IMG/VR virus record: IMGVR_UViG_3300045988_115788 | DNA length: 64,000 bases | From: a virus | Strand: one strand, 5' to 3' | In this document: positions 7,148 to 64,000 of the stretch, piece by piece | Position numbering within the stretch: the first letter of the stretch is position 1 | Layout: every line of letters begins with the position of its first letter | The notes under the pieces: generated by a model | Database searches by the model: none | What the model was told of the DNA's origin: nothing | The model's input: only the letters and a program-made list of their open reading frames with translations | Translations under genes and position numbers: made by a program

Positions 7148-7148
7148 T

Positions 7149-7267: not shown

Positions 7268-7375
7268 TAAAACTTGTATCTACGCTGAAACTGTGCAAGC
7301 TCCTAACTCTTCGAGAAGGATGAAGGTGATTCAGCTCAAAGTTGGCAGTCTTTGAGAAGTTAAAACTGCCTCTAT

Positions 7376-10910: not shown

Positions 10911-10917
10911 AAATCTC

Positions 10918-10946
10918 TTGACAAACAAAAAGAAATGTGGTATAGT
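10918..10946 (+). promoter_or_regulatory. promoter TTGACA-17-TATAGT
   Basis: Read directly. Confidence 0.7.
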
Positions 10947-10974
10947 AGATACACTGAAGGTGGTGGTGATACAC

Positions 10975-18627: not shown

Positions 18628-18793
18628 ATCAGAAATTCCGATTCCAAAACTTGATGGTCTTGATGAGACGAGTTTTTTGGCAGGTGTTCAGTGGCTAGGT
18701 ATTTATATTAAGGCTGTAGCTGAGACAGGAAGGTTTGATTTTACAGTAGAACAATTAGCTGAAATTGGAGGTTTGAGTAATGAAGAAGTTTAA
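18581..18793 (+). CDS. hypothetical protein
   Basis: GGAGG RBS 8 nt upstream; overlaps the helicase 3' end. Confidence 0.5.
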   Translation: MRMTQNVKQVLKKLYESEIPIPKLDGLDETSFLAGVQWLGIYIKAVAETGRFDFTVEQLAEIGGLSNEEV

Positions 18794-18977
18794 GATAGCT
18801 AATACGATTGCGTGTATTTTAAACGGCATGTGTCTTTCTTATGCAGGAGGTCAAGCGGCATACTATGCCCAGCAAAATGAACTTCCTTGGTTTCTTGTGA
18901 GTATTGGTTTAGCTGGATTATTTACTTTTCTGCTTGTTGACCTTATTCACATGAGGATTAAAAACTGGGAGGACTAA
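18780..18977 (+). CDS. small membrane protein (2 predicted TM)
   Basis: Hydrophobic segments IACILNGMCLSYAGG and WFLVSIGLAGLFTFLLVDLI. Confidence 0.55.
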   Translation: MKKFKIANTIACILNGMCLSYAGGQAAYYAQQNELPWFLVSIGLAGLFTFLLVDLIHMRIKNWED

Positions 18978-18980
18978 TAG

Positions 18981-20027: not shown

Positions 20028-20039
20028 GGAGAGTTTATT

Positions 20040-21125
20040 ATGGGGCGGATTGATGTAAAAAAATTAAAAGCAAGTCTGTCCCTTTTAGATATTGAGCATG
20101 TAATGAATCGGCTTGGGATTCCTATGTATAGTAAGGGCAACAGAGAATGGATTTTCTATCCAGGAACTAAATACAAAGACCCTTATGCAGGGAAACCCAA
20201 GCTGTATTTTTATACTGATTCCAAAATATTCATAAGTTACACTGAGTCATGCTCTATGGATATTATAGGTGTAGTACAAAAAAGATTGGCGTTACTGAAT
20301 GAACCTTGTAGTTTCTTGGATGCGGTCAATTATATTCTTGAAACAACAGGAAAAGAAGTCACTAATCTGCATGAATTAACTAAATCTTCATCCTATGACT
20401 GGGAAAACGACTTAGGCAAATTTTCTAAGTTTGGCAGCAGAGGTAATGGTTTGAAGTGTTATGATGCTAGTGTATTGAATCATTTATCCCAGTTATACCC
20501 TTTAAGATGGATTGATGAGGGTATAAGTTGGGATTCTATGAAAAAGTATCGGATAGGTTTTTATGACCGAATGAATCAAACAACTATTCCGGTTTTTGGA
20601 AACGATGGTAGCTTGTTGGGGATTCGGTGTAGGAATTGGACAGAAGATATGCTTGCACAAGCTAAATACATTCCATTAACATTACTTGATGGAACAACTT
20701 ATAAATTCCCTACACACAGTGTTTTGTATGGATTAAATTATAATTGGCCCGCCATTGAAAGAAAGAAAGAGGTGTGGATTGCTGAAGGCGAAAAATCAGT
20801 ATTGAAATTAGATACTTGGTATGGTACAGAATCTTGCGCTGTAGCAATGTTTGGAAATAATCTGGGACTTCAAAGAAGACAACAGTTGTTGAGTCTTGGT
20901 GTGAACAAGGTTTTTTATATCCCTGACCATGATTTTGTGGGACTCGGAGACAAAGAATTCGATTTATGGACAACTAAACTAAATAAATTTTGCGAGTTGT
21001 GGCATGGATTTGCTACTGTCAACGTTTTGCTTGATACTAAAGGTTATCTTGGCGCAAAAGACAATGCAACTGATTATAATAAAGAAATTTTTACAGAGCT
21101 GTTGGAAAATTCAGTTCAAATGTGA
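20040..21125 (+). CDS. DnaG-like DNA primase (Toprim)
   Basis: IPVFGNDGSLLGIRCRNW...KYIPL, Toprim WIAEGEKSVLKLD and IPDHD. Confidence 0.75.
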   Translation: MGRIDVKKLKASLSLLDIEHVMNRLGIPMYSKGNREWIFYPGTKYKDPYAGKPKLYFYTDSKIFISYTESCSMDIIGVVQKRLALLNEPCSFLDAVNYILETTGKEVTNLHELTKSSSYDWENDLGKFSKFGSRGNGLKCYDASVLNHLSQLYPLRWIDEGISWDSMKKYRIGFYDRMNQTTIPVFGNDGSLLGIRCRNWTEDMLAQAKYIPLTLLDGTTYKFPTHSVLYGLNYNWPAIERKKEVWIAEGEKSVLKLDTWYGTESCAVAMFGNNLGLQRRQQLLSLGVNKVFYIPDHDFVGLGDKEFDLWTTKLNKFCELWHGFATVNVLLDTKGYLGAKDNATDYNKEIFTELLENSVQM

Positions 21126-21192
21126 GGAGAAAAAAGGTGAAGAGTTAAGTGAAAAAATGTTTGACTTTTATAAAAAAATAAATAAAAAGCGC

Positions 21193-21221
21193 TTGACAAT
21201 TCTGAAAAAATGTGGTATATT
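21193..21221 (+). promoter_or_regulatory. promoter TTGACA-17-TATATT
   Basis: Read directly. Confidence 0.7.
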
Positions 21222-21261
21222 ATAAATAGTCCAAAGGACAATATAATTTTTGGAGGTATTT

Positions 21262-31755: not shown

Positions 31756-34008
31756 ATGGTTGCCACAACGGAGCCAGAAAAAATTGAAGTAAAGTGTAAA
31801 CCATGTAAGGAACTTTATTTTGATGCCACTACTGGATACAGAGTTATGGCATGTATCCCTGTTGGCCCCCCTCCAAATGGTCTTGAGCTTAATAAATATG
31901 GAAATTTTAGCGTTTCTGGAAATGGATTAAATCTTCTAAAAGAAGGTGTTCCTATCAATCTCAAATTAACAGAAGCTAAAAGCAAATATTCAGCGTCTTA
32001 TAATTTTGCTGGACTTCCTGATTTAAGCATGGAAACAGATAAGGTACACGTCAATAGAGATGGCACGATGAGTATCTTATGTAGCTTTGCAACAAAAACA
32101 CAAGCTCAACACGTCATGGACGCTTATCCTAACTTTGTAGACATGGTTTTGAATGGCGAAGAAGACCAGTTAGATTATAAGAAAATTTATAACGTAGGAA
32201 AGAAACGACTTGAAGAATACATTTACAAAGTAAGAGAGAATAGCGGTGCAGTTCCTTTCCTACCTTTCTTGTTGAGTATTGGTGTTGCCGACTATGATAA
32301 AGCTGTTGAGATAACAAAAGATTATTCCAACCCTGATAATATGATTTATGCTTACAATCGCGACCCCTATAGTTTTATGATTGAAAGCATTAAATATTCT
32401 TTTGAAACTTCTGATAAAATCATTATTGAGCATAATGAGAAAATGGCAGAATCAAGAGAGCGTTGCGGCTGGGCTTTGTCTACTATTTTAAAACAAAATG
32501 AAACTGAAACTGGTGACACTAGAATTGCAAAAGAAATAGTTGAACAAGCCTTAAAAATTATGATTCCAGAGGCCGCACAGTGGTATGAAGTTGGCAAAAC
32601 TTTAAGCAACACAGTAGAGCATGAAGGTTGGCTTTCTCGTTCTGAAACATATTACGCAGAAAAAAGCATCGCTGATTTCATTAAAAATAGAATTGACAAT
32701 TCTGAACATGTTGATTTTGAATGGCAAAATTTTGTACAAAGAGAAGAAGGCAATCTCACAGAAGAACAGAGTAAAATTCTTCAACTAATGTGCGATAACG
32801 ATGTTGTTATCCTTACTGGTTGTGCAGGAAGTGGTAAATCGTTCACCACTAAAACTATCATTGATTTGTTAGAATCTAAGAATTTTACTTATCAATTATT
32901 GGCTCCTACAGGAATAGCTTCTAAAGTGCTTTCTACTGCAACGGGTAGACCAGCTTCTACAATTCATCGCTGGGCTGGTGCTGGCGACCCTAGAGATGTT
33001 GATTACGTTGTTGTTGATGAGCTTGGTATGGTTAGTGCGGAAGTATTAAAAATGCTAATCGAAGTTATTCCACCTACTTGTAAGATGATTTTGGTGTTTG
33101 ACCCCGCTCAGTTAATTAGTATTGGCGCAGGGAACGTTGCTAAAGATTTGGTAATGAGTCGGAGAGTTCCTATAGCTATGCTCACAAAAGTCTTTAGATA
33201 TGGTATCGGTGGCATAGCAACAATAGCCACAGACTTCCGTAAAGGCATTGTAAGCAACTTAGAAGAAGAGTTTGATGATTTTAAGTATTACAATACTAAT
33301 AATGTAAAGGAACAATTTGAAGGCGTTTTAGAAGCTTATCAGGGGTATTTAAATGATGGTTACACAAGAGAAAACATTCTAATCATCTCCCCTTTTAACG
33401 TAGGGGAAGTAGGCACAAAAGCTATCAATTTGGCGATTCAAGAAAAATATTCTCTTGGACAAGAACTTGAATATAAGACCAACTTTGATGGAAAATTTAG
33501 AATTGGCGACAAGGTTATTTGCAACAAAAATACTTATGATGCTAAAGTAGCAGAACAAACAAGTAGCGGATATGGATTTTCATTAAATGGTTCAGGCAAG
33601 TGCGAAACTACTTGGGTTTTCAACGGCAACCAGGGTATTGTACTTGGCGATTTTTACGATGATACAAGCAGAAGTAATTGTATTGTTGTAGAATTTGATT
33701 GTGGCATGGTCGCTTTCAGTCAAAAAGAATTTCAAAAACTATCCCTAGCTTATGCTTTGAGTTGTCATAGAGTACAAGGTTGTGAGTCACCTGCTGTTAT
33801 TTTTGTAGCCAACAGTCAGCACAAAAAGCTTTTGACCAACAATCTTTGTTATGTTGCCGTGACAAGAGCGAAAAAACACTTGACAATTATTGCAGACTAT
33901 GATACAATAGAAGAAGCATTAAGAAAGCATGAAGAAACGACTCGCAACACTTGGTTACAAGAAATGATGCAGAAAGGCTGGAAAGAACATGACAAAAAGT
34001 CAACTTAA
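31756..34008 (+). CDS. RecD-like SF1 DNA helicase
   Basis: Walker A GCAGSGKSFT, VVVDELGMV, and C-terminal SCHRVQGCE...YVAVTRAKKHL. The start may be TTG at 31738. Confidence 0.75.
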   Translation: MVATTEPEKIEVKCKPCKELYFDATTGYRVMACIPVGPPPNGLELNKYGNFSVSGNGLNLLKEGVPINLKLTEAKSKYSASYNFAGLPDLSMETDKVHVNRDGTMSILCSFATKTQAQHVMDAYPNFVDMVLNGEEDQLDYKKIYNVGKKRLEEYIYKVRENSGAVPFLPFLLSIGVADYDKAVEITKDYSNPDNMIYAYNRDPYSFMIESIKYSFETSDKIIIEHNEKMAESRERCGWALSTILKQNETETGDTRIAKEIVEQALKIMIPEAAQWYEVGKTLSNTVEHEGWLSRSETYYAEKSIADFIKNRIDNSEHVDFEWQNFVQREEGNLTEEQSKILQLMCDNDVVILTGCAGSGKSFTTKTIIDLLESKNFTYQLLAPTGIASKVLSTATGRPASTIHRWAGAGDPRDVDYVVVDELGMVSAEVLKMLIEVIPPTCKMILVFDPAQLISIGAGNVAKDLVMSRRVPIAMLTKVFRYGIGGIATIATDFRKGIVSNLEEEFDDFKYYNTNNVKEQFEGVLEAYQGYLNDGYTRENILIISPFNVGEVGTKAINLAIQEKYSLGQELEYKTNFDGKFRIGDKVICNKNTYDAKVAEQTSSGYGFSLNGSGKCETTWVFNGNQGIVLGDFYDDTSRSNCIVVEFDCGMVAFSQKEFQKLSLAYALSCHRVQGCESPAVIFVANSQHKKLLTNNLCYVAVTRAKKHLTIIADYDTIEEALRKHEETTRNTWLQEMMQKGWKEHDKKST

Positions 34009-49030: not shown

Positions 49031-49050
49031 TTAATTTTTTTAAAAAAGAC

Positions 49051-49079
49051 TTGACAAGCTGAAATTTTAATGATACAAT
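49051..49079 (+). promoter_or_regulatory. promoter TTGACA-17-TACAAT
   Basis: Read directly. Confidence 0.7.
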
Positions 49080-49127
49080 AAAGACACAAATAAAGGAGGT
49101 AACACGCATTGAAGAAGGTGAATAAAA

Positions 49128-51986: not shown

Positions 51987-52088
51987 AAATATGAAATGAT
52001 ATTTGTTGAAACAGTATTTGATAATTGGTAAGTATAACTAACGAAATGTTATAAAAAACTACGAAGCGATAGAAAAGGATGAAACAAC

Positions 52089-52304
52089 ATGGAAAAATAT
52101 CTAGTAAAAGTAACTCTTTTTGACGGAAATGAATACTACGTTTGTAAAGGATTTTTTACAAAATATACTCTTGATTCAAATATTTCTAATGGGATTCATT
52201 TTGATTTAAAAGAGGCTAACGCAGTTAGTCAAGAATTTAAAAAATATTATCCTGAATACGAAGTGCGACTAAGTAAAGTAGATTACGAGAAAGAAGAATT
52301 TTAG
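52089..52304 (+). CDS. small KF-x-S/T...A family protein
   Basis: EKYLVKVTLFDGNEYYV...GIHFDLKEANAVSQEF. Confidence 0.6.
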   Translation: MEKYLVKVTLFDGNEYYVCKGFFTKYTLDSNISNGIHFDLKEANAVSQEFKKYYPEYEVRLSKVDYEKEEF

Positions 52305-52325
52305 CATTGGGACACAATTTGGGAT

Positions 52326-52541
52326 ATGGAAAGGGCCGCAAATGACTTATTCAATTTTTTAAATTATAAAATCAAATATTTTCCAGATGAAACATTTTAT
52401 ACATGGTATGTATATACTGATTGCAGATGTCGTTGTTTGCTAGTAGAACAAAAAGTAGAAGGAATTTCAAAAGGCTTTTATCATGTATATGAAAATGATG
52501 TTGTTAGTGTGACAAGCAAAAAAATAACAAAAGAATTATGA
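52326..52541 (+). CDS. hypothetical protein
   Basis: 71-aa ORF; the last gene of the rightward arm. Confidence 0.55.
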   Translation: MERAANDLFNFLNYKIKYFPDETFYTWYVYTDCRCRCLLVEQKVEGISKGFYHVYENDVVSVTSKKITKEL

Positions 52542-52608
52542 TTTACTCTAAAAATGGAACGATTCTAAGAGTGTTTAATGGATAAATAATAATATAGCGT
52601 AAAAAATA

Positions 52609-52632
52609 CCCCTAGAGAATTATCTCTAGGGG
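52609..52632. terminator. bidirectional terminator hairpin between the convergent arms
   Basis: cccctagag / ctctagggg 9-bp stem with A/T runs on both sides. Confidence 0.65.
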
Positions 52633-52652
52633 TAAAATTATATTATGTTTTA

Positions 52653-53708
52653 TTAAACATAGAAGCAGGGGGCCACCGCATTGCAATAACGCGAGAAGTA
52701 GCCGTCCGCCGAACCATCAGCGTACACATAGCAAAAGGTGTTGGAGTCGCCGAAACACGGACTTCTGTTCCACCACCATACAGCACTGTTAGTGTTATTA
52801 TATTTATACCTAACCTTACTATTTCCATTTTTATAATAATCATACTGCTTCTGCTTATTCTGCTCTGCTGAATTAGCGTAATCTCTAGTACCATGAACTT
52901 CAAATTCCGCTTCTAAGCAGATAGTTTCAGTTGTTGCAGTTACGTTAGAAGAATTATTAGTACCGCCACCTGTATTATCGGTATATTTTGTAACAGTTTT
53001 CAATACGTTCTGAAGGCCAGTAGGTAGAGCATTTTTAATTGCAGACATGATTGTAGAACGCATATAACAACCTTCCCAACCACCGCTATTTGTATTACTG
53101 TCCCCATAAGACATGGAGAAATAACCAGAAGAAGTCATGGGGTATCGGCGATATTGGGAATCAACCAATCCAACAGTTTCGTTATTTACTTTACCGATGC
53201 AGAAATGAATACGATTATTCCCTTCGATTTCTGCGTTGTGATTGATGCCTAAGATATAAGCATCAATCTTTACATTACTAAAAGTAGTATTGCCTACTGT
53301 GCCATTCAATACAATACTTTTAGTATCGCCAACACTGAATAAATTAGCCGCATCACCACTTGCGCTAACAGCACTAATCTCGGCCCAAGAATAATCGTTC
53401 AAAGTACGAAAAACTTTGTATTGCTTAAATTCTCTTACTTCAATAGTTGCCGTATTACTTCCCGCCGTAACAGTCCAAGTACCATATCCTACGTTGCCAA
53501 TAGTCGCAATACCATCTTTACTTGTTGCAGATAAGGTCTTACCGCCGCTAACAGCTTGTGCAACAGTTCCCGTAGTACAGTATACTATAAATTGCGCTCC
53601 ACTTGGTTCATAATCAATAATATTATCTAAAAGAATTTCAGGATACAGAATATCATACTGATTCTGTTCATTTAGATTTCTCATCGTAAATTTATATTTT
53701 CCCATCAT
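52653..53708 (-). CDS. DGR target protein 1 (receptor-binding / tail-fibre protein with C-terminal variable region)
   Basis: C-terminus ...PCFGDSNTFCYVYADGSADGYFSRYCNAVAPCFYV is encoded by VR1. Paralog of 62130-63227. Confidence 0.8.
   Translation of the reverse strand: MMGKYKFTMRNLNEQNQYDILYPEILLDNIIDYEPSGAQFIVYCTTGTVAQAVSGGKTLSATSKDGIATIGNVGYGTWTVTAGSNTATIEVREFKQYKVFRTLNDYSWAEISAVSASGDAANLFSVGDTKSIVLNGTVGNTTFSNVKIDAYILGINHNAEIEGNNRIHFCIGKVNNETVGLVDSQYRRYPMTSSGYFSMSYGDSNTNSGGWEGCYMRSTIMSAIKNALPTGLQNVLKTVTKYTDNTGGGTNNSSNVTATTETICLEAEFEVHGTRDYANSAEQNKQKQYDYYKNGNSKVRYKYNNTNSAVWWWNRSPCFGDSNTFCYVYADGSADGYFSRYCNAVAPCFYV
52658..52761 (-). repeat. DGR variable repeat VR1 (with IMH-like 3' end)
   Basis: Aligns to TR 61464-61568. 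Hand count: 17 differences, 14 at TR adenines (coding sense) and 3 elsewhere. Confidence 0.8.
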
Positions 53709-53980
53709 TTTTCCCCTTCAAGATAAGCTTTGAATTTATCAATAATAGCCTTATCAACATATTGCTTATTAGTCAAATGATTACTGTCAGTAGGAGCGCC
53801 ACCAGAAATATCGTCACAAGTAAGAGTGATAACAGGGTCAGGTTTACCATTAACTACGACAGGAACATCTACAACTCCTTCTACGGCATTTACAACGGGC
53901 CTACCTAGCACATCCTTAGTTACATGGAATTGTTCTGCATTAAACAGATAACCGCCATCTGGAGCCTTAAATTCTGCCAT
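53705..53980 (-). CDS. small fibre-associated protein, paralog of 56931-57131
   Basis: MAEFKAPDGGYLFNAEQFHVTKDVLGRPVVNAVEG versus MAEVKAPGGNFFLNSEQFYITKNRYGQPVLNSID. Confidence 0.6.
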   Translation of the reverse strand: MAEFKAPDGGYLFNAEQFHVTKDVLGRPVVNAVEGVVDVPVVVNGKPDPVITLTCDDISGGAPTDSNHLTNKQYVDKAIIDKFKAYLEGEK

Positions 53981-53993
53981 GTATCATCCCTCC

Positions 53994-54437
53994 TTAAACT
54001 GTGCCAGTGACTTGATACCAGAAGTCGCCAGCTTTTTGATTGGTGGGCTGAGTTTCAGAAACTTTGATATCAATAGAACTTAGAGCAACAGCAGTAGGAA
54101 CGCCACTTTCATTAAATCCTACATATTGACCGCTGGTACCAGTTAGTGCGACAGCTTTACCGTTAGTATCACTAACAATCACACTATTTTTAGTAACAGT
54201 ATTACCTCCAGTAGTCTGCATATAATCAGCTTGAATATCTGCAATATCACTTGCTTGGGTATTAACTTCGTTAGTTAATGTAGTTAAATCGCTCTTGTTA
54301 GCAAGTTCAATTTCACCTTCGGTAATAGCTTTGTCGCCAACAAACACCTGCTTAGTGTCTTTGGCTAGGTACATCTGACCATCTTCAAGATTAGGCTTTT
54401 TCGCAAAAGTGCCTCGAAGTATTTGAATTTTTTTCAT
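53994..54437 (-). CDS. tail-fibre-like protein
   Basis: N-terminus IQILRGTFAKKPNLEDGQMYLAKDTKQVFVGD resembles the IQIKRG...DTGKLYIG N-terminus of the 55232 fibre. Confidence 0.55.
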   Translation of the reverse strand: MKKIQILRGTFAKKPNLEDGQMYLAKDTKQVFVGDKAITEGEIELANKSDLTTLTNEVNTQASDIADIQADYMQTTGGNTVTKNSVIVSDTNGKAVALTGTSGQYVGFNESGVPTAVALSSIDIKVSETQPTNQKAGDFWYQVTGTV

Positions 54438-54452
54438 ATTTACACATCCTCC

Positions 54453-55130
54453 TTAAAGAAATAGTACATTAGTTGCAATAGTATCGTCTGACATATCTAA
54501 ATCGCCGCCATCAATATCTCCAATGGTAAGCTGTTTATCTTTATCAAAGATAATACTTTTTTTATCTGTTTTTATAGATAATACATTGTTTGTAAAATCC
54601 AATCCATCCCCTGTTGCAAGCGTAGTTTCACTTGAAACTGGTATATCGCTAATTTCATACTCTTTCTTTTTGCTATCCCATAGCTTCCAGTATCCTGAAC
54701 TATCTGGAATAGGTGGATGTTGATATAATTCATCCAAATTACTTTCAATTTGATAAAATTCAGAAGGGAGAGGCCCTTTCTCTTGATAAGCAGAACAATA
54801 ACCTAATACAGGTTTTTTAATCCATGCTTCAAATTTATCGCTTAAAAAAACTTTATCATCATTGATTCGTCTTAGTTGAAACAAGCATTTGCCAACAGGG
54901 AGTTGACCGGCAGTGAATATATAATAATATTCGCCTAATTCATCATTGTAATTTAAACTTATAGTGTTATGATAAATACACCCGTCTTGCTTTGATTCAA
55001 CGTCCAATTTATAGTTACCAGGAACATCAACAACGCAAGAAAAAGTATCTACCAAATTATCAGTCTCAAAACCAATTACTCTATCATTAAAAAGGTAAGT
55101 GATTTTGCGACCTTTAAGCTCAACTCGCAT
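54453..55130 (-). CDS. structural hypothetical protein
   Basis: 225-aa ORF in the fibre cluster; C-terminus TIGDIDGGDLDM. Confidence 0.55.
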   Translation of the reverse strand: MRVELKGRKITYLFNDRVIGFETDNLVDTFSCVVDVPGNYKLDVESKQDGCIYHNTISLNYNDELGEYYYIFTAGQLPVGKCLFQLRRINDDKVFLSDKFEAWIKKPVLGYCSAYQEKGPLPSEFYQIESNLDELYQHPPIPDSSGYWKLWDSKKKEYEISDIPVSSETTLATGDGLDFTNNVLSIKTDKKSIIFDKDKQLTIGDIDGGDLDMSDDTIATNVLFL

Positions 55131-55231
55131 CTTCGTTCCGCCTCCTTTTATGAAGAAGTTAAAAAATAAGGGGAGAATGTTTATCCTCCCCTTAAAGTTA
55201 TTTTATATTAAATTGTATATTAAGTTTTCAA

Positions 55232-56851
55232 TTAAGCAATTTCACCAGCATCAATATCGCCAACAGAAATAACACCTGCGGCAACAGTGATAGAAGTACC
55301 ATCGGGCTTAACAGCACCAGCAACAGCAGTAGAAGCAACATCCATAGTAATTCCGTTAGTAGAATTTAGACTTAGACCGTTGCCAGCAACAACCTTGGTA
55401 GAAACAACACGCTCATCAGAAATAGCAATGCCGTCACCAGCAGTATAAGCCTTTTCGGTAGCAACGAATAGACCATCAGTACCTAGAGATAGAGCATTAC
55501 CAGAAGCGGCAGAGATAGCAACCTTTACGGTAGGAGCAGTAGCTTCACCGGCGACAGTAATAGACTTATCTGCGGCAGTTACGGAAGCAACCTTACCATC
55601 TGCGGCAGTCTGAACCTTTGCAATTTCTTCCTGGGCATACTTCTTAACACCGTAAACAGTAGCCTTATCGGCAGCATCAGCGGTAGTACCTAGAACAGCG
55701 GCAGCGGCACCAGCTTCATCAAAAGCGCTCTTGGGCTGATAAGCGGCAGTGTCTAGGCCCTTAACAGCAACGTCAGTACCTTCAACAGCGATAGTGCCAT
55801 TAGTAGCACCAGTTGCAATGTCGCTATTCTGTAGGGCAGAATCAGCTAGACCTAGAGAAGCCTTAACACCAGCGGCAAGCTTTTCTAGGGTGATAGAACC
55901 ATCGGTAATAGTGGCAGTAACCTTGTGGTCTTCAGAAACAGCAATAACGACCATATCATCTGCCTGAGAGCCAGAAGTAACATACTCAATTAGGTCAGCA
56001 ACATTGATATAAATCTTATCAGAAGTCTTGTTAGCAATGGTTAGCTCAATGTAAGTACCAGGGGTCTGACCTTCAGGATTGACAACAACCTTACCAGACT
56101 CAACAACCATGTCTTTAGGAATGTTGATGGAGGCGCCAACATTAGCGCCATCCTTCTGTAGGTTATAGACTGCGGCAAAATCACCAGAATCTTCAGCCTT
56201 AACAATGGTATAAGTAGAGGCGGCAGGAATGGTTACGGATAGACCGGCGGCACCAAGAGTTAGAGCATTGCCTACGGCAGGGTCTACCTTAACAGCAACA
56301 GTAGGTTCAGTGACAGAGCCACCAACAGTTACAGAAGTGTCGCCAGCCTTAACAGCATTTACAACTTCCTTCTTTAGATTTGCGGCGGCTTCAGTGGCGG
56401 CACCAGCAACATCAAAGTATTCAACATCCTTTGCGGAAGCAGTGCCAAGGCCAGTAATCTTGGAAGCAGGAATGTCGAACTTTAGGTCTTCTAGGGCTAG
56501 GTCAGCACCTTCAGTGACGCGGCCCTTTGCATCAACAGTAACCTTACCATAAGTACCAGCAGTAACGCCAGAAGCGGCTAGTTCTAGTACAAGATTAACT
56601 GCGGCAGTGCCATCAAAATCTACGGCAGGAGCAGTAGCATCGCCAGAAATGGAGAAAGCACGAGCAACAGCTAGCTTTGCGGCTTGGTCAGCAGTGCCAC
56701 CATCGGGGTTAATGATTACATTACCAGCAGTAGTACCATTAGTACCAATGTATAGCTTGCCAGTGTCACGGGCAAAAGCAAATTCACCAGCCTTTAGAGC
56801 GGTTGCGAGTACAGCGGCGGATAGACCTCTTTTAATTTGAATAGTCTGCAT
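55232..56851 (-). CDS. tail fibre protein (Ala/Gly/Thr/Val-rich, repeat-containing)
   Basis: Starts at MQTIQIKRG. Has repeated ...GNALTLGAAGLSV / GNALSLGTDGLFV / GNGLSLNSTNGITM motifs and a locally raised GC. Confidence 0.7.
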   Translation of the reverse strand: MQTIQIKRGLSAAVLATALKAGEFAFARDTGKLYIGTNGTTAGNVIINPDGGTADQAAKLAVARAFSISGDATAPAVDFDGTAAVNLVLELAASGVTAGTYGKVTVDAKGRVTEGADLALEDLKFDIPASKITGLGTASAKDVEYFDVAGAATEAAANLKKEVVNAVKAGDTSVTVGGSVTEPTVAVKVDPAVGNALTLGAAGLSVTIPAASTYTIVKAEDSGDFAAVYNLQKDGANVGASINIPKDMVVESGKVVVNPEGQTPGTYIELTIANKTSDKIYINVADLIEYVTSGSQADDMVVIAVSEDHKVTATITDGSITLEKLAAGVKASLGLADSALQNSDIATGATNGTIAVEGTDVAVKGLDTAAYQPKSAFDEAGAAAAVLGTTADAADKATVYGVKKYAQEEIAKVQTAADGKVASVTAADKSITVAGEATAPTVKVAISAASGNALSLGTDGLFVATEKAYTAGDGIAISDERVVSTKVVAGNGLSLNSTNGITMDVASTAVAGAVKPDGTSITVAAGVISVGDIDAGEIA

Positions 56852-56930
56852 AATATCAAACTCTTTTATAAAAATATTTTTATAATTAGCTTTAAGTGAA
56901 ATCTTAATCACAAAAAGCTATTTTTTAATT

Positions 56931-57131
56931 TTAAACAATCTCACCAGCATCTAGTTCAATGTTTTGGTGAGCTTTTTTATCATCATTGTGTTTATTTATA
57001 GCCACGACAATACTGCCGCCACCACCAGAATCAATAGAATTTAATACTGGTTGACCATATCTGTTTTTAGTAATATAAAATTGCTCACTGTTCAAGAAAA
57101 AGTTACCGCCAGGAGCTTTTACTTCGGCCAT
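56931..57131 (-). CDS. small fibre-associated protein, paralog of 53705-53980
   Basis: ATG at 57131 after AAAGGTGG. Ends in ELDAGEIV, like the fibre C-terminus DIDAGEIA. Confidence 0.55.
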   Translation of the reverse strand: MAEVKAPGGNFFLNSEQFYITKNRYGQPVLNSIDSGGGGSIVVAINKHNDDKKAHQNIELDAGEIV

Positions 57132-57221
57132 TAAAACGACCACCTTTCTTAACTCTGTACAAAGTTTTTATAGATTCTATATAAACTTAGCAAGCGGTAC
57201 CTCTCGCCAAGATAATTTTCT

Positions 57222-57533
57222 TTATTCTTCTGGCGCATTTACTTTTTTAGACATAGAGCATAGGTCATCAATTAGTTTAGACACTGCCTCCATGTCAATA
57301 TCATAATTAACTTCATTAGCAGAAGCCTTAATCATAGCAAGAACATACTGTTTCTTTTCTGCACCAGATTCGTATTGCTTTTCGGCCTCTTCCATGTATT
57401 TCATCACAAGATTCAGCACAATAGACCAATTCTTTTCTTTTACTGCTTTCTGAATATATCTTACAAGAGCAATAATAAGAGGAATAGTCGTTGCAATGCC
57501 GCTAAGAATAGAAATTACAATGTTAATATCCAT
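57222..57533 (-). CDS. putative holin (N-terminal TM)
   Basis: MDINIVISILSGIATTIPLIIALV is a TM segment; lies just downstream of the endolysin gene in the direction of transcription. Confidence 0.45.
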   Translation of the reverse strand: MDINIVISILSGIATTIPLIIALVRYIQKAVKEKNWSIVLNLVMKYMEEAEKQYESGAEKKQYVLAMIKASANEVNYDIDMEAVSKLIDDLCSMSKKVNAPEE

Positions 57534-57547
57534 ATATATTACCTCTT

Positions 57548-57877
57548 TTAAATAGTAGGTTCATTATAATCATTTATTTTAAACTCATTTGCTTTAGCTA
57601 AAGCATAAGAAATGCCATCGCCGTCTGCGCTTGTATTTTCATCTCTGTTTTTATCTACAATACGACTTAAAACAATACTACAAGCAGTTCCAATAGGTGT
57701 AAATACAATAGTCCAACAATAAAGGCTACCCGTATAATCCATACCAATACACTTAATAGCTAAATAAAAGCCGCCAGCTAAACCAAATGCTAAAAATAAA
57801 AGAATATAAACAGCTAGTCGATTTGTAAACCCTAACCGCTTAAAATGATTTCTTATTCTATGTTTTCTTTTAGCCAA
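57548..57877 (-). CDS. putative holin / membrane protein (2-3 TM)
   Basis: Hydrophobic segments LAVYILLFLAFGLAGGFYLAI and WTIVFTPIGTACSIVL; sits next to the endolysin. Confidence 0.45.
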   Translation of the reverse strand: MAKRKHRIRNHFKRLGFTNRLAVYILLFLAFGLAGGFYLAIKCIGMDYTGSLYCWTIVFTPIGTACSIVLSRIVDKNRDENTSADGDGISYALAKANEFKINDYNEPTI

Positions 57878-57878
57878 C

Positions 57879-58673
57879 TTAAATCAGCCCTTTTCTCCCC
57901 ATAACCGCAATAAATTCATCACGCTTTAAGAATCCTTCAGGCGCTTCACCATTAACTAGCTTCTGTTGAGTTGCTTTATTCCAATGCCCTTCTTGCTTAG
58001 ACCAATCAGGTTCAGGCTTAGAAGCAACGTATTGAGAAGCCTTTTGTAACAGTGTATATGCCTGTTCAGGAGTCATTTCTTTAATGAAAGTATTTATATC
58101 CATGTCTTCTTCAACCTCCTCTACGGGCTTTGTAGTGGCCTGTAAACGCTTATTTACTTCTGCCGCAATCTCACCATATTTACTGAACAAATAATTACCA
58201 GGACAAGACTTGTCTGGCCTAGTGTATCTATGTGGCACCATATTGCATGCCGCCCAATTACCTGTAAAAGCTGGACAATATTGCTTTCCTTCTTTCCAAA
58301 TAAGCTTCTTGATGCCATTACGTTTACAAATATCCACACATAAATTGATTAGAGCAACGTATGCTTTTTTAGTACATTCATAAGGTTCTTTATAACTTTG
58401 AATACTAGATACTTCAATAGTAACTACTTCATGGTCTACTTTATGGCTTGTACACCAAGCACGATTTTCTTCAAGAACATATTGACCAATTCTACCATCT
58501 GGCCCAATACCATAATGAGAAGAAGCTTTTCTTTGTTGAAAAACTTGTCCACAACCTTCAACAGAACCAGGCCCCGCCATAGTATGAATACTGATGCCCT
58601 TAATCCGGCCTTGTCTAGGCTTTGTACAATGAGGTGATAGTTTAGTATAATTTACTAATTTACTTTGAGACAT
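57879..58673 (-). CDS. N-acetylmuramoyl-L-alanine amidase endolysin (Amidase_2/PGRP type)
   Basis: IKGISIHTMAGPGSVEGCGQVF...SSHYGIGPDGRIGQYV...RAWCTS. Start taken at MSQSK. Confidence 0.75.
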   Translation of the reverse strand: MSQSKLVNYTKLSPHCTKPRQGRIKGISIHTMAGPGSVEGCGQVFQQRKASSHYGIGPDGRIGQYVLEENRAWCTSHKVDHEVVTIEVSSIQSYKEPYECTKKAYVALINLCVDICKRNGIKKLIWKEGKQYCPAFTGNWAACNMVPHRYTRPDKSCPGNYLFSKYGEIAAEVNKRLQATTKPVEEVEEDMDINTFIKEMTPEQAYTLLQKASQYVASKPEPDWSKQEGHWNKATQQKLVNGEAPEGFLKRDEFIAVMGRKGLI

Positions 58674-59343
58674 TAAAAGCACCATCCAACTTATTAACAA
58701 TATTATTCATTTGTTCTTGTGCGGCAGTAAGCATCTCATTCATTTTAGCCTTAAAAGTATCATTTAGTTCTTCGCCATATTGTACACCATACACCTTATT
58801 AGGTTCAGTATAAGTTTTCATTTGAGCTTTTAACATGTTGAAATAAGTGGTATGATAAGTAACGTGTGTCTTATAAGCCATATATAGTTCAGTAATAGAT
58901 TTTGCATCCATTACAGCACATTCTTCACCATCTGCATGATAAGGGAAAGAATTTGCACCAAGAACAATGGAATTAAACATAGAATCAATATTAGTTTGGT
59001 CGGCGGCAGTTAGAGAATAATGCTTGCCATTATAATCAATACCATCAATAATAGTTTTATTGCAAATGGCAGAAAGTTCAACACATTTCTTATCCATTGC
59101 TTCACCCAAATAGTCAAATTTAGGCAGTTGTTTAAGAGTTTCTTCATCTACTTCTCGAATTTCTACACTTTCAGGACAGCCAATTCCGTTAGTACCTAAA
59201 ATATTATAAGCAACAGACATAAACGCAACGCCCTTTGGATTGCTGGATTTATCTTGCCCATAACATCCATTGTCTTGTAGCTTAATATAATTTAGTTCAT
59301 CAGTAGTACCTATTACCAAATTATTTCGGATAATTGCATACAT
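58660..59343 (-). CDS. DUF4376-like protein (fibre-assembly/chaperone-like), paralog of 63246-63866
   Basis: FPYHADGEECAVMDAKSITELY...VTYHTTYFNMLKAQM versus YPYHADGELCELYSANNIKLI...KLYHLTYCNHLMSWI. Confidence 0.5.
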   Translation of the reverse strand: MYAIIRNNLVIGTTDELNYIKLQDNGCYGQDKSSNPKGVAFMSVAYNILGTNGIGCPESVEIREVDEETLKQLPKFDYLGEAMDKKCVELSAICNKTIIDGIDYNGKHYSLTAADQTNIDSMFNSIVLGANSFPYHADGEECAVMDAKSITELYMAYKTHVTYHTTYFNMLKAQMKTYTEPNKVYGVQYGEELNDTFKAKMNEMLTAAQEQMNNIVNKLDGAFNVSK

Positions 59344-59365
59344 TAAATAAACCAGTCCTTTCCGA

Positions 59366-59776
59366 TTAAATTTTTTGACAAATTGTCAAAATACGTTCTA
59401 GTTCTTCGATAGGTGCTTCATAAAAATCTTTACTCCACACCCAAAAGTCACTATGTTCTGCGCGGCGATATTTAGTTAAAGATTCATCTTCCCATAGTAA
59501 ATTCCAACGCTCTTGATGCTTCTTTTGATTAAAGGCCCTGTCTTTGTTAAGACGTTTTAGAATCTTGTCAATTAGTTCGCCACGAAGAAGTCCTTTGTTG
59601 TCGTTATTGATTGCAAAATAATCATAAGCATTTTGAGATGTATTGTAACATAGCGGCCCATTTTCGTTTGAAATAAGACCATTAGTTTCTGTACAAAGCG
59701 TTGCATAAGGCAGATTAACCATGCCTTGAAGTGCTTTTTGATTAAATCTCTTTTTTACAATATAATTATTTTTCAT
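59366..59776 (-). CDS. hypothetical protein immediately downstream of the DGR RT
   Basis: ATG at 59776 lies 1 nt after the RT stop, with a GAAAGGA RBS. Confidence 0.55.
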   Translation of the reverse strand: MKNNYIVKKRFNQKALQGMVNLPYATLCTETNGLISNENGPLCYNTSQNAYDYFAINNDNKGLLRGELIDKILKRLNKDRAFNQKKHQERWNLLWEDESLTKYRRAEHSDFWVWSKDFYEAPIEELERILTICQKI

Positions 59777-59777
59777 T

Positions 59778-61184
59778 TTATTCCTTTCTAATTTGCGGCT
59801 CATTTAAAATATCGTGTATTTTATCAAAGATGTCCATAGGCTTAGATTTCATTTTAGCAAGATAATCTTTTCGTTCGCAAAGAGGTATGAATCCATTATA
59901 CATCATCGACTCAATTTTCTTTGATTGAAGGTCAAGAAAAATCTTTAATTGTTTTTTAGAACAATAATAGACCCAACCACAATAATCATTCCAAACATAT
60001 TTGATATAACATTTAAAAGGTTTATTTTGTTGACTCAAATATTGAATGAAAGTAGATACAAACTTTTTATCCATATTATATATGGTTCGATAGCAACCAA
60101 AATGTTTTGCATAGCCTCTCCAACATTGGTATGTTACACAAATATCATCTATTGACATTTTTCCCTCGTCAGCCCATTTCTTGAAAATTTTTAATTTTCT
60201 TCTAATTCTTTTAAGACTATCTTTATTCAATTTTGTTACGATTTTTCCACTATCTGTCAAAGTAAATCTAATTTTCAAAAAAGTAAAACTATGGTGCTTA
60301 AAAGGAGTTATGCGATTTTTCTTTTCGTTTATTTTTATGCCAACAGAATTGGCTAATATTTCAACAAAATTTTTTATCTCTTTTAGTTCTTCAAAAGAAT
60401 TGCTGATTACATAACCATCATCCATATATCTGCCATAACCTTTTATGCGAAAAACATCTTTAATGTAATGGTCTATAAGATTAGCATAATCTAAAGCAAT
60501 ATTTTGTGATATTGGACTGCCTAATCCAACTCCAAATGGCCCCTTAGAATCATGTAAAGTAAGAAATTCATCAATAAATTTATCTCCAAGAACAATCAAC
60601 TGTCTATCTTTTATATATTTTCTTAATTCCATTTTTGCACCTTCATGCGGAATTGAAGCAAAATATTTAGAAAAATCATATTGATAAATGCCTCCTTTAT
60701 AACCATACTTTCTATAATGATGCCGCAGTTGCTTTTTTAGCATCTGTATGGCAAAGTGGATACCTTTATTTTTCAACGAAGCTGAATTAGTTGAAACAAA
60801 ACTTTTAGAATAAGCTTCTGTCATTATTTCGTTGCAAAAACACTTTTGAACCGCTCTATCTTCAATATTCAAAGCATGTATGTCTCTTATTTTTCCATGC
60901 TCATTTGTTTTAAAGAAGCAAAAGCCATGAAATTTATAGGCATTAGCATCCATCTTTTTCTTTAATTCAAAAGACCTTATTAACAATTCATTTTCAAAAT
61001 TTTGTACTGAAGTTTTCCATCTAACTCCTTTACAACATTCTTTTGATGCTCTATATAAATTTTCAAAAGAATAAACTTCATCATAACTTTTATTTACTAT
61101 ATTTCTTTTCTTTAAATCTCTTTTTGCTTTACGCCTTAAATATCTTTTCTCATGGCGCTCTTTACTTGTCAGAATTTTCACCAC
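59778..61184 (-). CDS. DGR reverse transcriptase
   Basis: RT motifs IYQYDFSKYFASI, GLGSPISQNIALDY (DGR-type SQ motif) and GRYMDDGYVI (YMDD). Adjacent TR and avd. Confidence 0.9.
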   Translation of the reverse strand: MVKILTSKERHEKRYLRRKAKRDLKKRNIVNKSYDEVYSFENLYRASKECCKGVRWKTSVQNFENELLIRSFELKKKMDANAYKFHGFCFFKTNEHGKIRDIHALNIEDRAVQKCFCNEIMTEAYSKSFVSTNSASLKNKGIHFAIQMLKKQLRHHYRKYGYKGGIYQYDFSKYFASIPHEGAKMELRKYIKDRQLIVLGDKFIDEFLTLHDSKGPFGVGLGSPISQNIALDYANLIDHYIKDVFRIKGYGRYMDDGYVISNSFEELKEIKNFVEILANSVGIKINEKKNRITPFKHHSFTFLKIRFTLTDSGKIVTKLNKDSLKRIRRKLKIFKKWADEGKMSIDDICVTYQCWRGYAKHFGCYRTIYNMDKKFVSTFIQYLSQQNKPFKCYIKYVWNDYCGWVYYCSKKQLKIFLDLQSKKIESMMYNGFIPLCERKDYLAKMKSKPMDIFDKIHDILNEPQIRKE

Positions 61185-61463
61185 TTTTTATTTTAATTTT
61201 TTCGTATAATTTTTAGTTTTGTTAAAAACTAAGATAATTTGCTAATTACATAACTGGTACCTATGAAATTTGTCTAAAATTATCAAACAACAAACCATGC
61301 AAGAAGCGTCCAGGACACAGTATCGAAAAAATAATTTAGGATGCCAAAGCAGAGCCAAGGATATTTCCCCCTTCTATGAAAAGATTATTTTCACCTAGCA
61401 AAAACTAGGTTACTTCTCAATCCCAGTAGCCATCTATAACCAAAAAATGGCGGCTACTATTGG

Positions 61464-61568
61464 CATAGAATCAGGGGGGCCACCGCATTGCAATTCCGCG
61501 AGTTGTTGTTGTTCGCCGAACCATCAGTGTTCACATTGCAGAAGTTGTTGGAGTTGTCGGAATACGGA
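61464..61568 (-). repeat. DGR template repeat (TR), AAC/AAT-rich
   Basis: Coding sense reads PYSDNSNNFCNVNTDGSANNNNSRNCNAVAP. 26 adenines by hand count. Noncoding position between avd and RT. Confidence 0.85.
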
Positions 61569-61595
61569 AACGGGAAATACCCTATTTTTTATTTA

Positions 61596-62054
61596 TTATT
61601 CTTTTAATTCATTTTGATACTTTTTATATCTTTTCTTTGTGTCTTGTATTACACCCGAAATCAATTTCCTTTCGGTTGTTATTAAATCTACCCAATCTTG
61701 AAAAATATTATTTGCCTGCTCTTTCGTCCCAAGAAAATTATTTCCTTCTCTTATATATTCATATACGGTTGAAACCATAAAAGTTAAAGCATAAATTTTA
61801 GACCTTGCAATATATAAATGAGATAATCTTTTTTCATACTCTTCTTGAGACATGGTTTTACTTATATAATAAGAATTTGCTTGAAAAACACTAAGACTAA
61901 TATCTCGTGTCAAATTATATAAATCTTGATACATATTAAATTTATAAGATTTTGGAAACTTTTTAGATAATTTTATAGTAAAAATAAAAAGTTTCTTTGC
62001 TGTAGTTAAAAACTCCGCTTTAGAAGGATTTCTTTGTGCTTTATATACAGACAT
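61596..62054 (-). CDS. avd: DGR accessory variability determinant (Avd, four-helix-bundle type)
   Basis: 152-aa basic helical protein between the target gene and TR, the canonical DGR position. Confidence 0.7.
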   Translation of the reverse strand: MSVYKAQRNPSKAEFLTTAKKLFIFTIKLSKKFPKSYKFNMYQDLYNLTRDISLSVFQANSYYISKTMSQEEYEKRLSHLYIARSKIYALTFMVSTVYEYIREGNNFLGTKEQANNIFQDWVDLITTERKLISGVIQDTKKRYKKYQNELKE

Positions 62055-62086
62055 ATTTTATTAAATTCCTTTTCTTCTTGATGTAT

Positions 62087-62114
62087 GCCCTGCCACGCTT
62101 GCGCGAAGCAGGGC
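62087..62114 (-). other. GC-rich hairpin just downstream of VR2
   Basis: gccctgc / gcagggc 7-bp stem, about 16-43 nt past the target-2 stop codon. Confidence 0.5.
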
Positions 62115-62129
62115 TTTGGATTTTACAGA

Positions 62130-63227
62130 TTAAACATAGAAGCAGGGGGCCACCGCATCGCAATACCGCGAGTTGGTGCCGGACGCCGAACCACCAGTGT
62201 GCACAAAGCAGAAGTAGCCGGAGTTGCCGGAATACGGACTCCTGTTCCACCAATATACAGCACTGTTAGTGTTATTATATTCATATCTAACTTTACTATT
62301 CCCGTTTTTATAATAGTCATACTGTTGTTGTTTGTTTTGTTCATAACTATTAGCGTATTTTCTAGTACCATGAACCTCAAATTCTGCTTCAAGACAAATT
62401 GTTTCAGTTGTTGCAGTTACATAAGAAGAGTTGCTACCACCGCCGCCACCTGTATTATCAGTATACTTCGTAACTGTCTTTAACACATTTTGAAGGTCAG
62501 TAGGTAAAACATCTTTAATTGCAGGAATAATTGTAGAACGCATATAACAACCTTCCCAACCTCCAACATTTGTATCGCTATCACCATAAGACATAGAGAA
62601 ATAACCAGAAGAAGTTATTGGATATTGTTCATATTTGGAATCAATTAGTCCAACAGTTTCGTTATTAACCTTGCCAATACAAAAGTGAATACGATTATTC
62701 CCTTCGATTTCTGCATTGTGGTTAATACCTAAGATATAAGCATCAATAGATAAATTAGAAAACGTAGTATTACCTACTTGCCCGTTAATAATAATCGTTT
62801 TTGTATCCCCTACATTCCAATAATTAGAAGCTTCTCCACTTGCGCTAATTTCACTAATAATGTTCCACGAATTATCATTAAGTGTAGCACTAACAACAGT
62901 AAAAGATATTTCATAAATCTTTAAAGCGTCTATTGTTATGTTTTGCGTTTTAGTAGTCCCTGAGATATTAGTAGAAACTAAATATTCTCCATATTGAAGA
63001 TTATCAAAAGTAGCAATGCCAGTTGTGTTAGTTACAGCTGTTGCGGTTTTAGCCCCACTTAAATTTACAACCTGTCCTGCTGCTCCACCGACAATAGCTA
63101 CATCAATTCTTGCTCCTCCTAAATTTTCCAAGTCTTTTATATTTTCTTTCACCGTGTTGGGATACAGTATATCATAACTATTAGAAGCTTCATTATACTC
63201 TCGCATAGTGATTAGATATTCTGCCAT
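62130..63227 (-). CDS. DGR target protein 2 (receptor-binding protein with C-terminal variable region)
   Basis: C-terminus ...PYSGNSGYFCFVHTGGSASGTNSRYCDAVAPCFYV is encoded by VR2. AAGGAGG RBS. Confidence 0.85.
   Translation of the reverse strand: MAEYLITMREYNEASNSYDILYPNTVKENIKDLENLGGARIDVAIVGGAAGQVVNLSGAKTATAVTNTTGIATFDNLQYGEYLVSTNISGTTKTQNITIDALKIYEISFTVVSATLNDNSWNIISEISASGEASNYWNVGDTKTIIINGQVGNTTFSNLSIDAYILGINHNAEIEGNNRIHFCIGKVNNETVGLIDSKYEQYPITSSGYFSMSYGDSDTNVGGWEGCYMRSTIIPAIKDVLPTDLQNVLKTVTKYTDNTGGGGGSNSSYVTATTETICLEAEFEVHGTRKYANSYEQNKQQQYDYYKNGNSKVRYEYNNTNSAVYWWNRSPYSGNSGYFCFVHTGGSASGTNSRYCDAVAPCFYV
62135..62238 (-). repeat. DGR variable repeat VR2 (with IMH-like 3' end)
   Basis: Aligns to TR with 15 differences (hand count), all at TR adenines in coding sense. 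Confidence 0.85.
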
Positions 63228-63245
63228 TGCACAACCTCCTTATTG

Positions 63246-63866
63246 TTATTTTTCTTCCATTTTTATTTTCAAAATTTTTTCCATATTTTCTTTTAAATCA
63301 TCAGGAAGTTCAATCCCATAATAAATTGACTTTAATTCTTTCATCTTGTTACATCTTTTAATCCAAGACATAAGATGATTGCAATAAGTCAAATGATAAA
63401 GTTTATGTTGAACAAAAGCATTACTAATTAACTTGATATTATTAGCACTATATAGTTCGCATAATTCACCATCAGCATGATAAGGATATTCTTTCATTCC
63501 ATTATTAACAGCATCTAATGCAGTTGCAATATTGATTTGGTCTGTTTCTTCCATAGAAAAATGTTTAACAGTTTCATTTTCTAATGTTACGTCGCAACCA
63601 GTAACAATAGCTTTACTACATTTATCAGAAACTTCTTCTAATTTTTGATTTCTTAAAGGAGAAATATCAATATTAAATACTGAAACAGGAATTAGTTTTT
63701 TAACAATATTATTTTCATCTAGTTCAATATTGACGAAAGGAAAAGTAGAAGGAATTTCAATTTCATCTGGGATTAAAGCATAACCTTCTGGCGGCGATAT
63801 TTCTATTTCAGTTACAAAATTCTCATGCGCCCCATTGATATATTCTTCTATTTTAATGTATCTCAT
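63246..63866 (-). CDS. DUF4376-like protein, paralog of 58660-59343
   Basis: ATG at 63866 after AAGGGGTG; contains the YPYHADGE motif. Confidence 0.5.
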   Translation of the reverse strand: MRYIKIEEYINGAHENFVTEIEISPPEGYALIPDEIEIPSTFPFVNIELDENNIVKKLIPVSVFNIDISPLRNQKLEEVSDKCSKAIVTGCDVTLENETVKHFSMEETDQINIATALDAVNNGMKEYPYHADGELCELYSANNIKLISNAFVQHKLYHLTYCNHLMSWIKRCNKMKELKSIYYGIELPDDLKENMEKILKIKMEEK

Positions 63867-64000
63867 AACAAAACACCCCTTATTGAACCTCACATAGTTA
63901 AAGTCACATGATTCTTGAGAACTCTTTTCCATTGAAAAGATATTTATCAAGCTATCCCGACCGTTCCTGCCGTTCTTTTTTGTATTTGCTAGACTACTTC

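Follow-up and report, generated by a model that had tools for sequence, protein, structure and literature searches.

Diversity-generating retroelements (DGRs) alter genes by means of a reverse transcriptase (RT) that copies the RNA of a template repeat (TR) into cDNA while misreading adenines; this cDNA then replaces a variable repeat (VR), which is recognized by its initiation of mutagenic homing (IMH) end. Here we describe the DGR of a gut phage recorded as IMGVR_UViG_3300045988_115788 in IMG/VR, of which a stretch of 64,000 nucleotides (nt), hereafter the window, was analyzed. The element has one tail-protein target within its cassette (target gene 2, ending in the repeat VR2) and a second one outside it (target gene 1, at 52653-53708, ending in the repeat VR1), and the relationship of the remote repeat to the template is the subject of this report.

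The prototype of these elements is the mtd-avd-TR-brt cassette of Bordetella phage BPP-1. The element in the window resembles this cassette in its order of target, accessory gene, TR, and RT, in the adenine specificity of mutagenesis, in TR codons rich in AAY, in an IMH that starts with a G/C run, and in the presence of a hairpin downstream of the VR; the Bordetella bRT is also the best solved relative of its RT. It differs from BPP-1 in having two targets instead of one, in the use of DUF6273 rather than Mtd targets, in the weak match of its accessory protein to Avd, and in the loop of the hairpin downstream of VR1, which is TAAT and not GRNA.

DGRs with more than one target have been surveyed by Wu et al. 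2018 (PMC5758913), who found two targets in 13% of DGRs and non-adjacent targets in 45 of 372, the latter within the same prophage for phage-associated elements. Differences from the TR at positions other than adenine (non-A-to-N) were present in 23%, and targets of one DGR could differ in having them; the cause was left open between RT error, integration error, and independent mutation. As in elements of that survey, the window holds one RT and one TR serving two paralogous targets, the second a few kb away, with the VR at the 3' end of the gene, an IMH/IMH* pair, and one target with A-to-N differences only while the other has non-A-to-N differences. Two-target, non-adjacent DGRs with unequal mismatches are therefore already catalogued, and the arrangement described here is not new in kind. 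What the present data add to the survey is population evidence that points to the origin of the asymmetry, in that the adjacent VR follows substitutions in the TR and the non-adjacent VR does not.

Two further groups of gut phages offer close comparisons. The Faecalibacterium phages Lelie, CP11, Roos, and Pioen (PMC11792537) are phages of gut Clostridia that likewise have DUF6273 targets and a C-terminal VR, and Lelie and CP11 also have two variable regions, in their case in two DUF6273 target proteins, one large and one small. The phage studied here is much larger (~120 kb), its RT is only 33 to 39% identical to the nearest phage RTs, theirs among them, and its targets are parted by a lysis cassette and fibre genes. 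Phages of nd4-like and nd12-like type, which carry "tentaclins" (PMC10743442), also pair one TR with two target genes, and comparison of many near-identical genomes revealed adenine-site variation in both of their VRs. Their targets, however, are different types of protein, with one VR near a 5' end and both genes in the cassette, whereas the targets here are paralogs with 3' VRs, one of which lies outside the cassette.

Two targets of one element

Repeats were compared ungapped and in coding sense. When the entire 64 kb was scanned on both strands and only non-adenine positions were scored, exactly three copies of a 94-nt repeat were detected, all on the minus strand, with no third VR in the 559-aa Mtd_N protein encoded between the targets. 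The TR (61475-61568) contains 26 adenines, mostly in AAC or AAT codons, and has the same sequence in L001, L003, and L085 to L096 as in the window (L numbers designate related sequences, and P numbers target proteins). The cassette-adjacent VR2 (62145-62238) has 15 mismatches to the TR, 15/15 of them at TR adenines. VR1 (52668-52761), which forms the 3' end of target gene 1, has 17, with 14 at TR adenines and 3 at other bases; the ungapped comparison thus confirmed the counts given in the initial annotation of the window. The bias of mismatches toward adenines was pronounced in both repeats (Fisher p = 2e-7 for VR1 and 8e-11 for VR2), and the fractions of TR adenines changed, 14/26 in VR1 and 15/26 in VR2, lie near the misincorporation of ~50% measured for the Bordetella phage RT (PMC7826257).

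As had been proposed, the two target genes are paralogs. Target gene 1 (52653-53708, minus strand; 351 aa) and target gene 2 (62130-63227, minus strand; 365 aa) each encode an N-terminal prealbumin-like domain and DUF6273, which is C-terminal in target 1 and is a documented DGR target domain (PMC11792537). Their 3' ends share 26 identical nt (GGTGGCCCCCTGCTTCTATGTTTAAT) that span C-run, IMH, and stop codon, and AVAPCFYV forms the terminus of either protein, in agreement with the IMH-like end and protein terminus originally described as common to the two genes. The IMH continuation of VR1 (52658-52667, minus strand) reads TGCTTCTATG. Both VRs end GGTGGCCCCC-TGCTTCTATG, and the TR reads GGTGGCCCCC(C)-TGATTCTATG before it diverges. 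The sequence downstream of the TR repeat, CCCCCCTGATTCTATGCC, is the IMH* form; the IMH* (61464-61474, minus strand; CTGATTCTATG) is distinguished from the IMH of the VRs by one extra C and a C>A change. A distance of 8.7 kb separates VR1 from the TR, and one of 7.0 kb separates it from the end of the RT gene.

Comparison with relatives bore out the proposal that VR1 is a second target of the same DGR. Among seven TR-coupled VR1 orthologs, 26/26 adenine sites vary, as compared with 4/68 non-adenine sites (p = 3e-19). Target-1 orthologs form 39 protein clusters with 81 to 100% identity, and their differences concentrate at residues derived from adenine-containing TR codons. Outside the VR, the target-1 genes of VR1-bearing relatives are only 83 to 90% identical, which indicates that the VR has been re-templated separately in many lineages. 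Further, the two target paralogs are 82% identical over the 350 nt upstream of the VR, and VR1 nonetheless equals the TR and VR2 at 65/68 non-adenine sites (P = 0.001). Agreement this close despite the divergence of the flanks indicates that VR1 was overwritten from this TR after the target genes diverged. Collectively, these data identify VR1 as a genuine second, non-adjacent target of a single DGR.

The targets take other forms in some relatives. In many of them the remote target is a protein of 728 to 739 aa with the same DUF6273 C-terminal end (L091 to L095 and L099, ~18770-20459; P0221 to P0223). Several relatives have an additional, third DUF6273 gene directly upstream of target 2; the end of this third gene is not TR-like (42 to 44 of 68 non-adenine sites match). 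Two proteins are hybrids: P0121 joins the N-terminal half of target 1 to a target-2-like C-terminal half, and P0130 has the body of target 2 but ends in the exact VR1 allele of the window. Either VR alleles move between genes by recombination or these are chimeric assemblies.

Coupling of the two variable repeats to the template

Each VR was compared with the TR of its own genome over the 68 non-adenine sites. Of the 13 genomes whose RT is intact, 11 had a VR2 free of non-adenine mismatches and 2 had a VR2 with a single one. VR1 was seen in five RT-carrying genomes, remote targets of the 730-aa form being left out because their VR falls outside the loci used; in these five the mismatches numbered 0 (L096), 3 (the window strain, 3/68), 9 (L100), 9 (L078, which matches the L097 genome), and 13 (L102). 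The counts for VR1 and VR2 differed significantly (Mann-Whitney p = 0.002). VR2 also reproduced substitutions that had occurred in the TR itself, including AA>GG at 13-14, T>C at 48, and C>T at 60 in L100, G>A at 84 in L097 and L098, and G>A at 87 in L102. VR1 of L100, L078, and L102, by contrast, lacked the substitutions of the corresponding TR, and its IMH was mutated in L078 and L102. Genomes without an intact RT provide a calibration: VR2 showed 7 non-adenine mismatches in L003, from which the RT is deleted, and 3 in L099, where it is truncated. Thus, VR2 tracks the TR and VR1 does not, being only weakly coupled to it. The initial annotation had considered both that VR1 acquired ordinary mutations after its last homing event and that it is drifting out of DGR control; these prove to be two ends of the same data, in which VR1 lags in 4/5 RT-carrying genomes and VR2 never does.

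The same difference was evident within the strain of the window. The exact target-1 protein was found on 13 public contigs, while target 2 occurred as three alleles, differing only inside the VR, on 7, 4, and 4 contigs. Between the window and the 120,453-nt scaffold L085, 17 differences were found over 11,871 nt (52130-64000); all fall in VR2 (62165-62227), 16 at adenine sites. In L085, VR1 was unchanged, including its three non-adenine mismatches, and the same was true of L077 and L088. VR2 is thus an active target, as it differs at adenine sites between otherwise identical genomes, and VR1 displayed no adenine-site variation between near-identical genomes (L077, L085, L088, and the 13 contigs). 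Two of the VR2 alleles come from adjacent run accessions of two MetaHIT-era projects and may represent one host sampled twice. The suggestion that one RT diversifying two fibres doubles the receptor repertoire is in principle correct at the level of the lineage; within this strain, VR2 alone has been seen to move.

Constancy of VR1 beside a varying VR2 had been put forward as the mark of a fossil target. It is not what is seen across the species, where VR1 varies and is hence no ancient fossil; it is what is seen within the strain, where only VR2 changes. VR1 might accordingly be dead in this strain, that is, formerly diversified, no longer rewritable, and decaying by ordinary mutation. Such decay would account for a VR1 that is the same on 13 contigs and in the isogenic L085, in which VR2 was rewritten, for the three non-adenine mismatches, and for the 9 to 13 such mismatches in other RT-carrying genomes, with the mutated IMH of L078 and L102.

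The region downstream of VR1 bears on the same possibility. Phage DGR targets usually have a hairpin 4 to 34 bp past the VR with a GC-rich stem of 7 to 10 bp and a GRNA loop (Guo et al. 2011, PMC3240598), and in BPP-1 the sequence of this loop is critical for homing (PMC3240598). Downstream of VR2, 30 nt past its C-run, is a GC-rich hairpin (62087-62114, minus strand; CCCTGCTTCGC-GCAA-GCGTGGCAGGG) whose tetraloop is GCAA. The hairpin found 33 nt past the C-run of VR1 (52607-52634, minus strand; z = -4.7), ACCCCTAGAGA-TAAT-TCTCTAGGGGT, has 12 bp, a stem of ~50% GC, and a 4-nt TAAT loop that is neither GRNA nor GNRA; it is followed by a T-run and looks like an intrinsic terminator. The absence of a GC-rich stem and GRNA-type loop would fit a dead VR1. 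However, VR1 of L096, a genome with an RT, has the same downstream flank as the window and no non-adenine mismatch, which argues that this flank does not abolish homing. The IMH, C-run, and stop region of VR1 are moreover the same as those of the active VR2 over 26 nt, the frame is open, only one of the three changes alters an amino acid, as purifying selection predicts, and the VR2 events are too few to exclude equal rates at the two targets. With an IMH identical to that of VR2 and an open frame, VR1 would more readily be a target that is idle, or seldom used, than one that is dead, and we regard its death in this strain as rather unlikely. With its recognition end intact and a strong hairpin downstream, VR1 may still be usable; its lower use could reflect either the non-consensus downstream hairpin or its position.

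Origin of the non-adenine mismatches in VR1

The three non-adenine mismatches are, in coding sense, a C>T change (TR 61560/VR1 52753) that converts TCC to TTC and Ser to Phe, a C>T change (TR 61541/VR1 52734) that converts TTC to TTT and is synonymous, and a G>T change (TR 61496/VR1 52689) that converts CGG to CGT and is also synonymous. The plus-strand changes and the codon changes first reported were reproduced; only the pairing of codons with coordinates was in error, the codons having been listed in reverse order. Each of the three changes is in the GC-to-AT direction, and the genome has 25 to 40% GC. Those at 52753 and 52689 are private to the window strain. TTC>TTT, at TR position 27 (window 61541), recurs in three further VRs, namely the VR1 copies of L002 and L035 and the VR2 of L003, which has no RT, and the four VRs that carry TTT differ from each other at adenine sites. 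A clade of TTT-bearing target-1 genes was considered and rejected, pairwise identities being star-like at 83 to 90%.

Taken with the coupling data, these features suggest that VR1 is probably a true but lagging second target and that its three mismatches are most likely ordinary substitutions acquired since it was last rewritten. This reading is favored by the direction of all three changes, by the two that are synonymous, and by the two that are strain private, and we infer that the mismatches postdate homing and did not arise in its course. By the established mechanism of DGRs, the RT, probably together with the Avd-like protein, copies TR RNA, and the adenine-misread cDNA replaces a VR. In our reading, VR2 would be rewritten often enough to mirror the TR at non-adenine positions, and VR1 much more rarely. 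In this strain VR1 would not have been rewritten since the three GC-to-AT point substitutions took place, while VR2 would have changed over the same period.

Several points weigh against this account. The contrast within the strain consists of few VR2 rewriting events, one of them certain, and by itself barely separates the rates of the two targets. The consensus of a population shifts only when an allele sweeps, and it could thus be stabilising selection in favor of a good allele, rather than rare homing, that has kept VR1 unchanged. The RT-carrying genomes with a known VR1 number only five. At the protein level, over all cluster representatives, non-adenine-coded deviations averaged 1.25 per allele in target 1 and 0.87 in target 2, a nonsignificant difference (p = 0.07); this set mixes RT-less genomes and TR variants, and we therefore relied on genomes whose own TR is known. 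If VRs simply drifted once they had last been rewritten, TTT would not be expected to recur in differently diversified copies; candidate causes are a hot spot of mutation, a lost TR variant, and the exchange of VR segments among phages or paralogs. Finally, L085 has in VR2 a lone non-adenine change, a C>T at window 62185 (GCG>GTG, Ala>Val), with nothing outside VR2 changed over 11.9 kb, so the DGR process may itself be the source of some non-adenine changes.

This last observation is the starting point for an alternative in which VR1 is serviced as well as VR2 and the three differences date from the homing event that last rewrote it, as products of misincorporation by the RT at non-adenines or of errors in cDNA integration. 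The C>T in L085, one among 17 changes in 11.9 kb, hints that the DGR process introduces C>T at non-adenines, and C>T predominates among the non-adenine changes observed; Wu et al. 2018 (PMC5758913) raised the same possibility for the non-A-to-N differences in 23% of their DGRs. The target-2 alleles P0123 and P0124, however, are separated only by the change at 62185, which identifies it as a point mutation on a standing allele rather than a product of homing and indicates that point changes inside VRs are not rare here. Three such errors in one event would also be an outlier against the 13 VR2 copies, which have 0 to 1 per 68 sites. The absence from VR1 of L100, L078, and L102 of substitutions present in the respective TR reflects lag and not error, and TTT recurs among VR1 copies that were diversified differently. 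An origin during homing thus appears improbable.

The TTT codon is the point in favor of a different template, ancestral or present as a second copy elsewhere, with T at at least one of the three positions. A TR bearing TTT would explain why this codon is common to VR2 of L003 and to the VR1 copies of L002, L035, and the window despite differing adenine sites; exchange of VR segments, of the kind suggested by the paralog hybrids P0121 and P0130, would explain it as well. Any TR of this type would carry the shared 3' end. No second TR was found in the 64-kb window, with ~56 kb of the strain's genome lying outside it, and no extra copy of the shared 3' end was present in a 119.7-kb relative or in other long contigs. 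All 17 TR copies examined read TCC, TTC, and CGG at the three sites, and the remaining two mismatches are strain private. The proposal of an ancestral or second TR, made when the window was first annotated, thus found no support, and we consider it very unlikely.

In a bolder reading, non-adenine mismatches could serve as a clock of the time since a VR was last rewritten. The element may then possess a built-in hierarchy, in which VR2 is rewritten continually and VR1 perhaps orders of magnitude less often, possibly for want of a GC-rich hairpin with a GNRA loop; VR1 would then cycle between recapture and decay, in a species in which the cassette is repeatedly deleted. We see this extension as possible and no firmer than that.

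Cassette, surrounding genes, and significance

On the minus strand the cassette is ordered target 2, Avd-like open reading frame (ORF), TR, and RT. The RT (59778-61184, minus strand; 468 aa) has a YMDD motif, matching the catalytic YxDD of DGR-type RTs, and LGSPISQ, which fits their [I/L/V]GxxxSQ motif, and matches RVT_1 (E = 4e-14) and the PHROG reverse-transcriptase family (E = 1e-72); its best relative in the PDB is the Bordetella bRT 8ub7 (E = 3e-14). The nearest phage RTs are those of Roseburia phage Shimadzu (39% identity) and of the Faecalibacterium phages Pioen, Roos, and FP_Taranis (33 to 34%). The Avd-like accessory protein (61596-62054, minus strand; 152 aa) weakly matches phrog_3206, "Avd protein of DGR" (E = 2e-4), and had no significant match in Pfam, NCBIfam, or the PDB. 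The RT and avd genes have a GC content of 22 to 31%, compared with 35 to 50% in the fibre genes.

The C-terminal 251 residues of target 1 (101-351, window 52656-53408) yielded a confident structure model (pLDDT 98) when built with diverse homologs; a full-length model from close homologs gave a pLDDT of 44 and was not used. The model of the DUF6273 domain resembles numerous phage proteins whose annotations are DUF6273, receptor-binding protein, or tail-collar fibre. Its only significant match among solved structures was the Thomasclavelia ramosa IgA peptidase 9qa6 (E = 3e-6, TM 0.52). A C-type-lectin (or Ig) fold is the one expected to display the VR in a DGR variable protein, but no solved DGR variable protein was matched significantly in the PDB, matches to C-type lectin and DUF1566/Lcl proteins covering only ~30 to 70 residues with nonsignificant E-values. 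A search of solved structures with the target-1 profile gave only weak matches to unrelated proteins, in the N-terminal region.

Between the cassette and VR1 lie the lysis cassette and the other fibre genes that had been predicted there. They include an Amidase_2 endolysin (57879-58700, minus strand), a candidate holin (57222-57533, minus strand), the 559-aa fibre-like protein with an Mtd_N domain (55232-56911, minus strand), and fibre-like DUF4376 proteins. Just downstream of VR1, this strain has a 413-nt stretch (52046-52458) with two plus-strand ORFs of 71 aa, at 52089-52304 and 52326-52541, that L002, L035, and L043 lack. An IS605-type TnpB/OrfB gene occurs just past window position 64000 (L085 8136-9239), close upstream of target 2 in the window strain, and genes of this type are present or absent at several fibre-region sites in relatives (L082, L095, L100, and L101). 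Elsewhere in the window, a 46-nt promoter-like element with TTGACA, a 17-nt spacer, and a TGxTATAGT-like extended -10 was found in six copies (6697-6742, 7012-7057, 10908-10953, 21183-21228, 33870-33915, and 49041-49086), and three tRNA genes, two for tRNA-Met (CAT) and one for tRNA-Arg (GCG), lie at 7071-7693.

The cassette has been lost repeatedly in this phage species, through deletions with differing end points. L003 lacks 59883-61344 (the RT only, with the TR kept) and L081 lacks 60050-62018; L044 and L101 lack ~59830-62113, with L021 grouped with L044, and L080 and L103 are joined at ~59787. In L099, the truncated RT is 391 aa long and the TR has lost adenines. L002 (IMGVR_UViG_3300045988_133080), in which the RT is deleted, has a VR1 (5999-6110) that lacks one AAC-derived codon and has an IMH C-run of six Cs rather than five, with a resulting frameshift in the final residues; the TR of L002 has five Cs where that of the window has six. 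L043 (NFYZ01004836.1) carries at 13275-13384 a hybrid repeat, the 5' part of which equals the TR and its upstream flank while the 3' part is VR1-like and continues into the VR1 downstream flank. This repeat, equivalent to window 52668-61584, joins directly to avd and VR2. It represents either an 8.8-kb deletion by recombination between TR and VR1, removing target 1, the fibre and lysis genes, and the RT, or a misassembly; L029, a sister contig from the same assembly, differs at 8/1280 nt.

Related contigs, 112 to 128 kb long, come from human and pig gut metagenomes, and the phage is a gut siphovirus of roughly 120 kb. Its nearest RTs, in Roseburia and Faecalibacterium phages, would loosely suggest a host among the Clostridia. 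A nucleotide search of a phage collection with the cassette region (52600-64000) gave no match. When the pattern of the shared 3' end was used, a scan of metagenomes returned 40 loci, 4 of them related, and a scan of a genome collection produced chance matches only, with no prophage or host assignment.

Public assemblies of this abundant gut phage species thus suffice to follow the behavior of one element with two targets: the adjacent VR follows the TR, including its mutations, the second VR lags behind, and both VRs drift when the RT is lost. We suggest that VR1 be annotated as a DGR target of unproven current activity. As a natural system it lends itself conveniently to comparing how fast homing proceeds at each of a DGR's two targets, and lag behind the TR offers a natural explanation for the non-A-to-N differences recorded in surveys of these elements.

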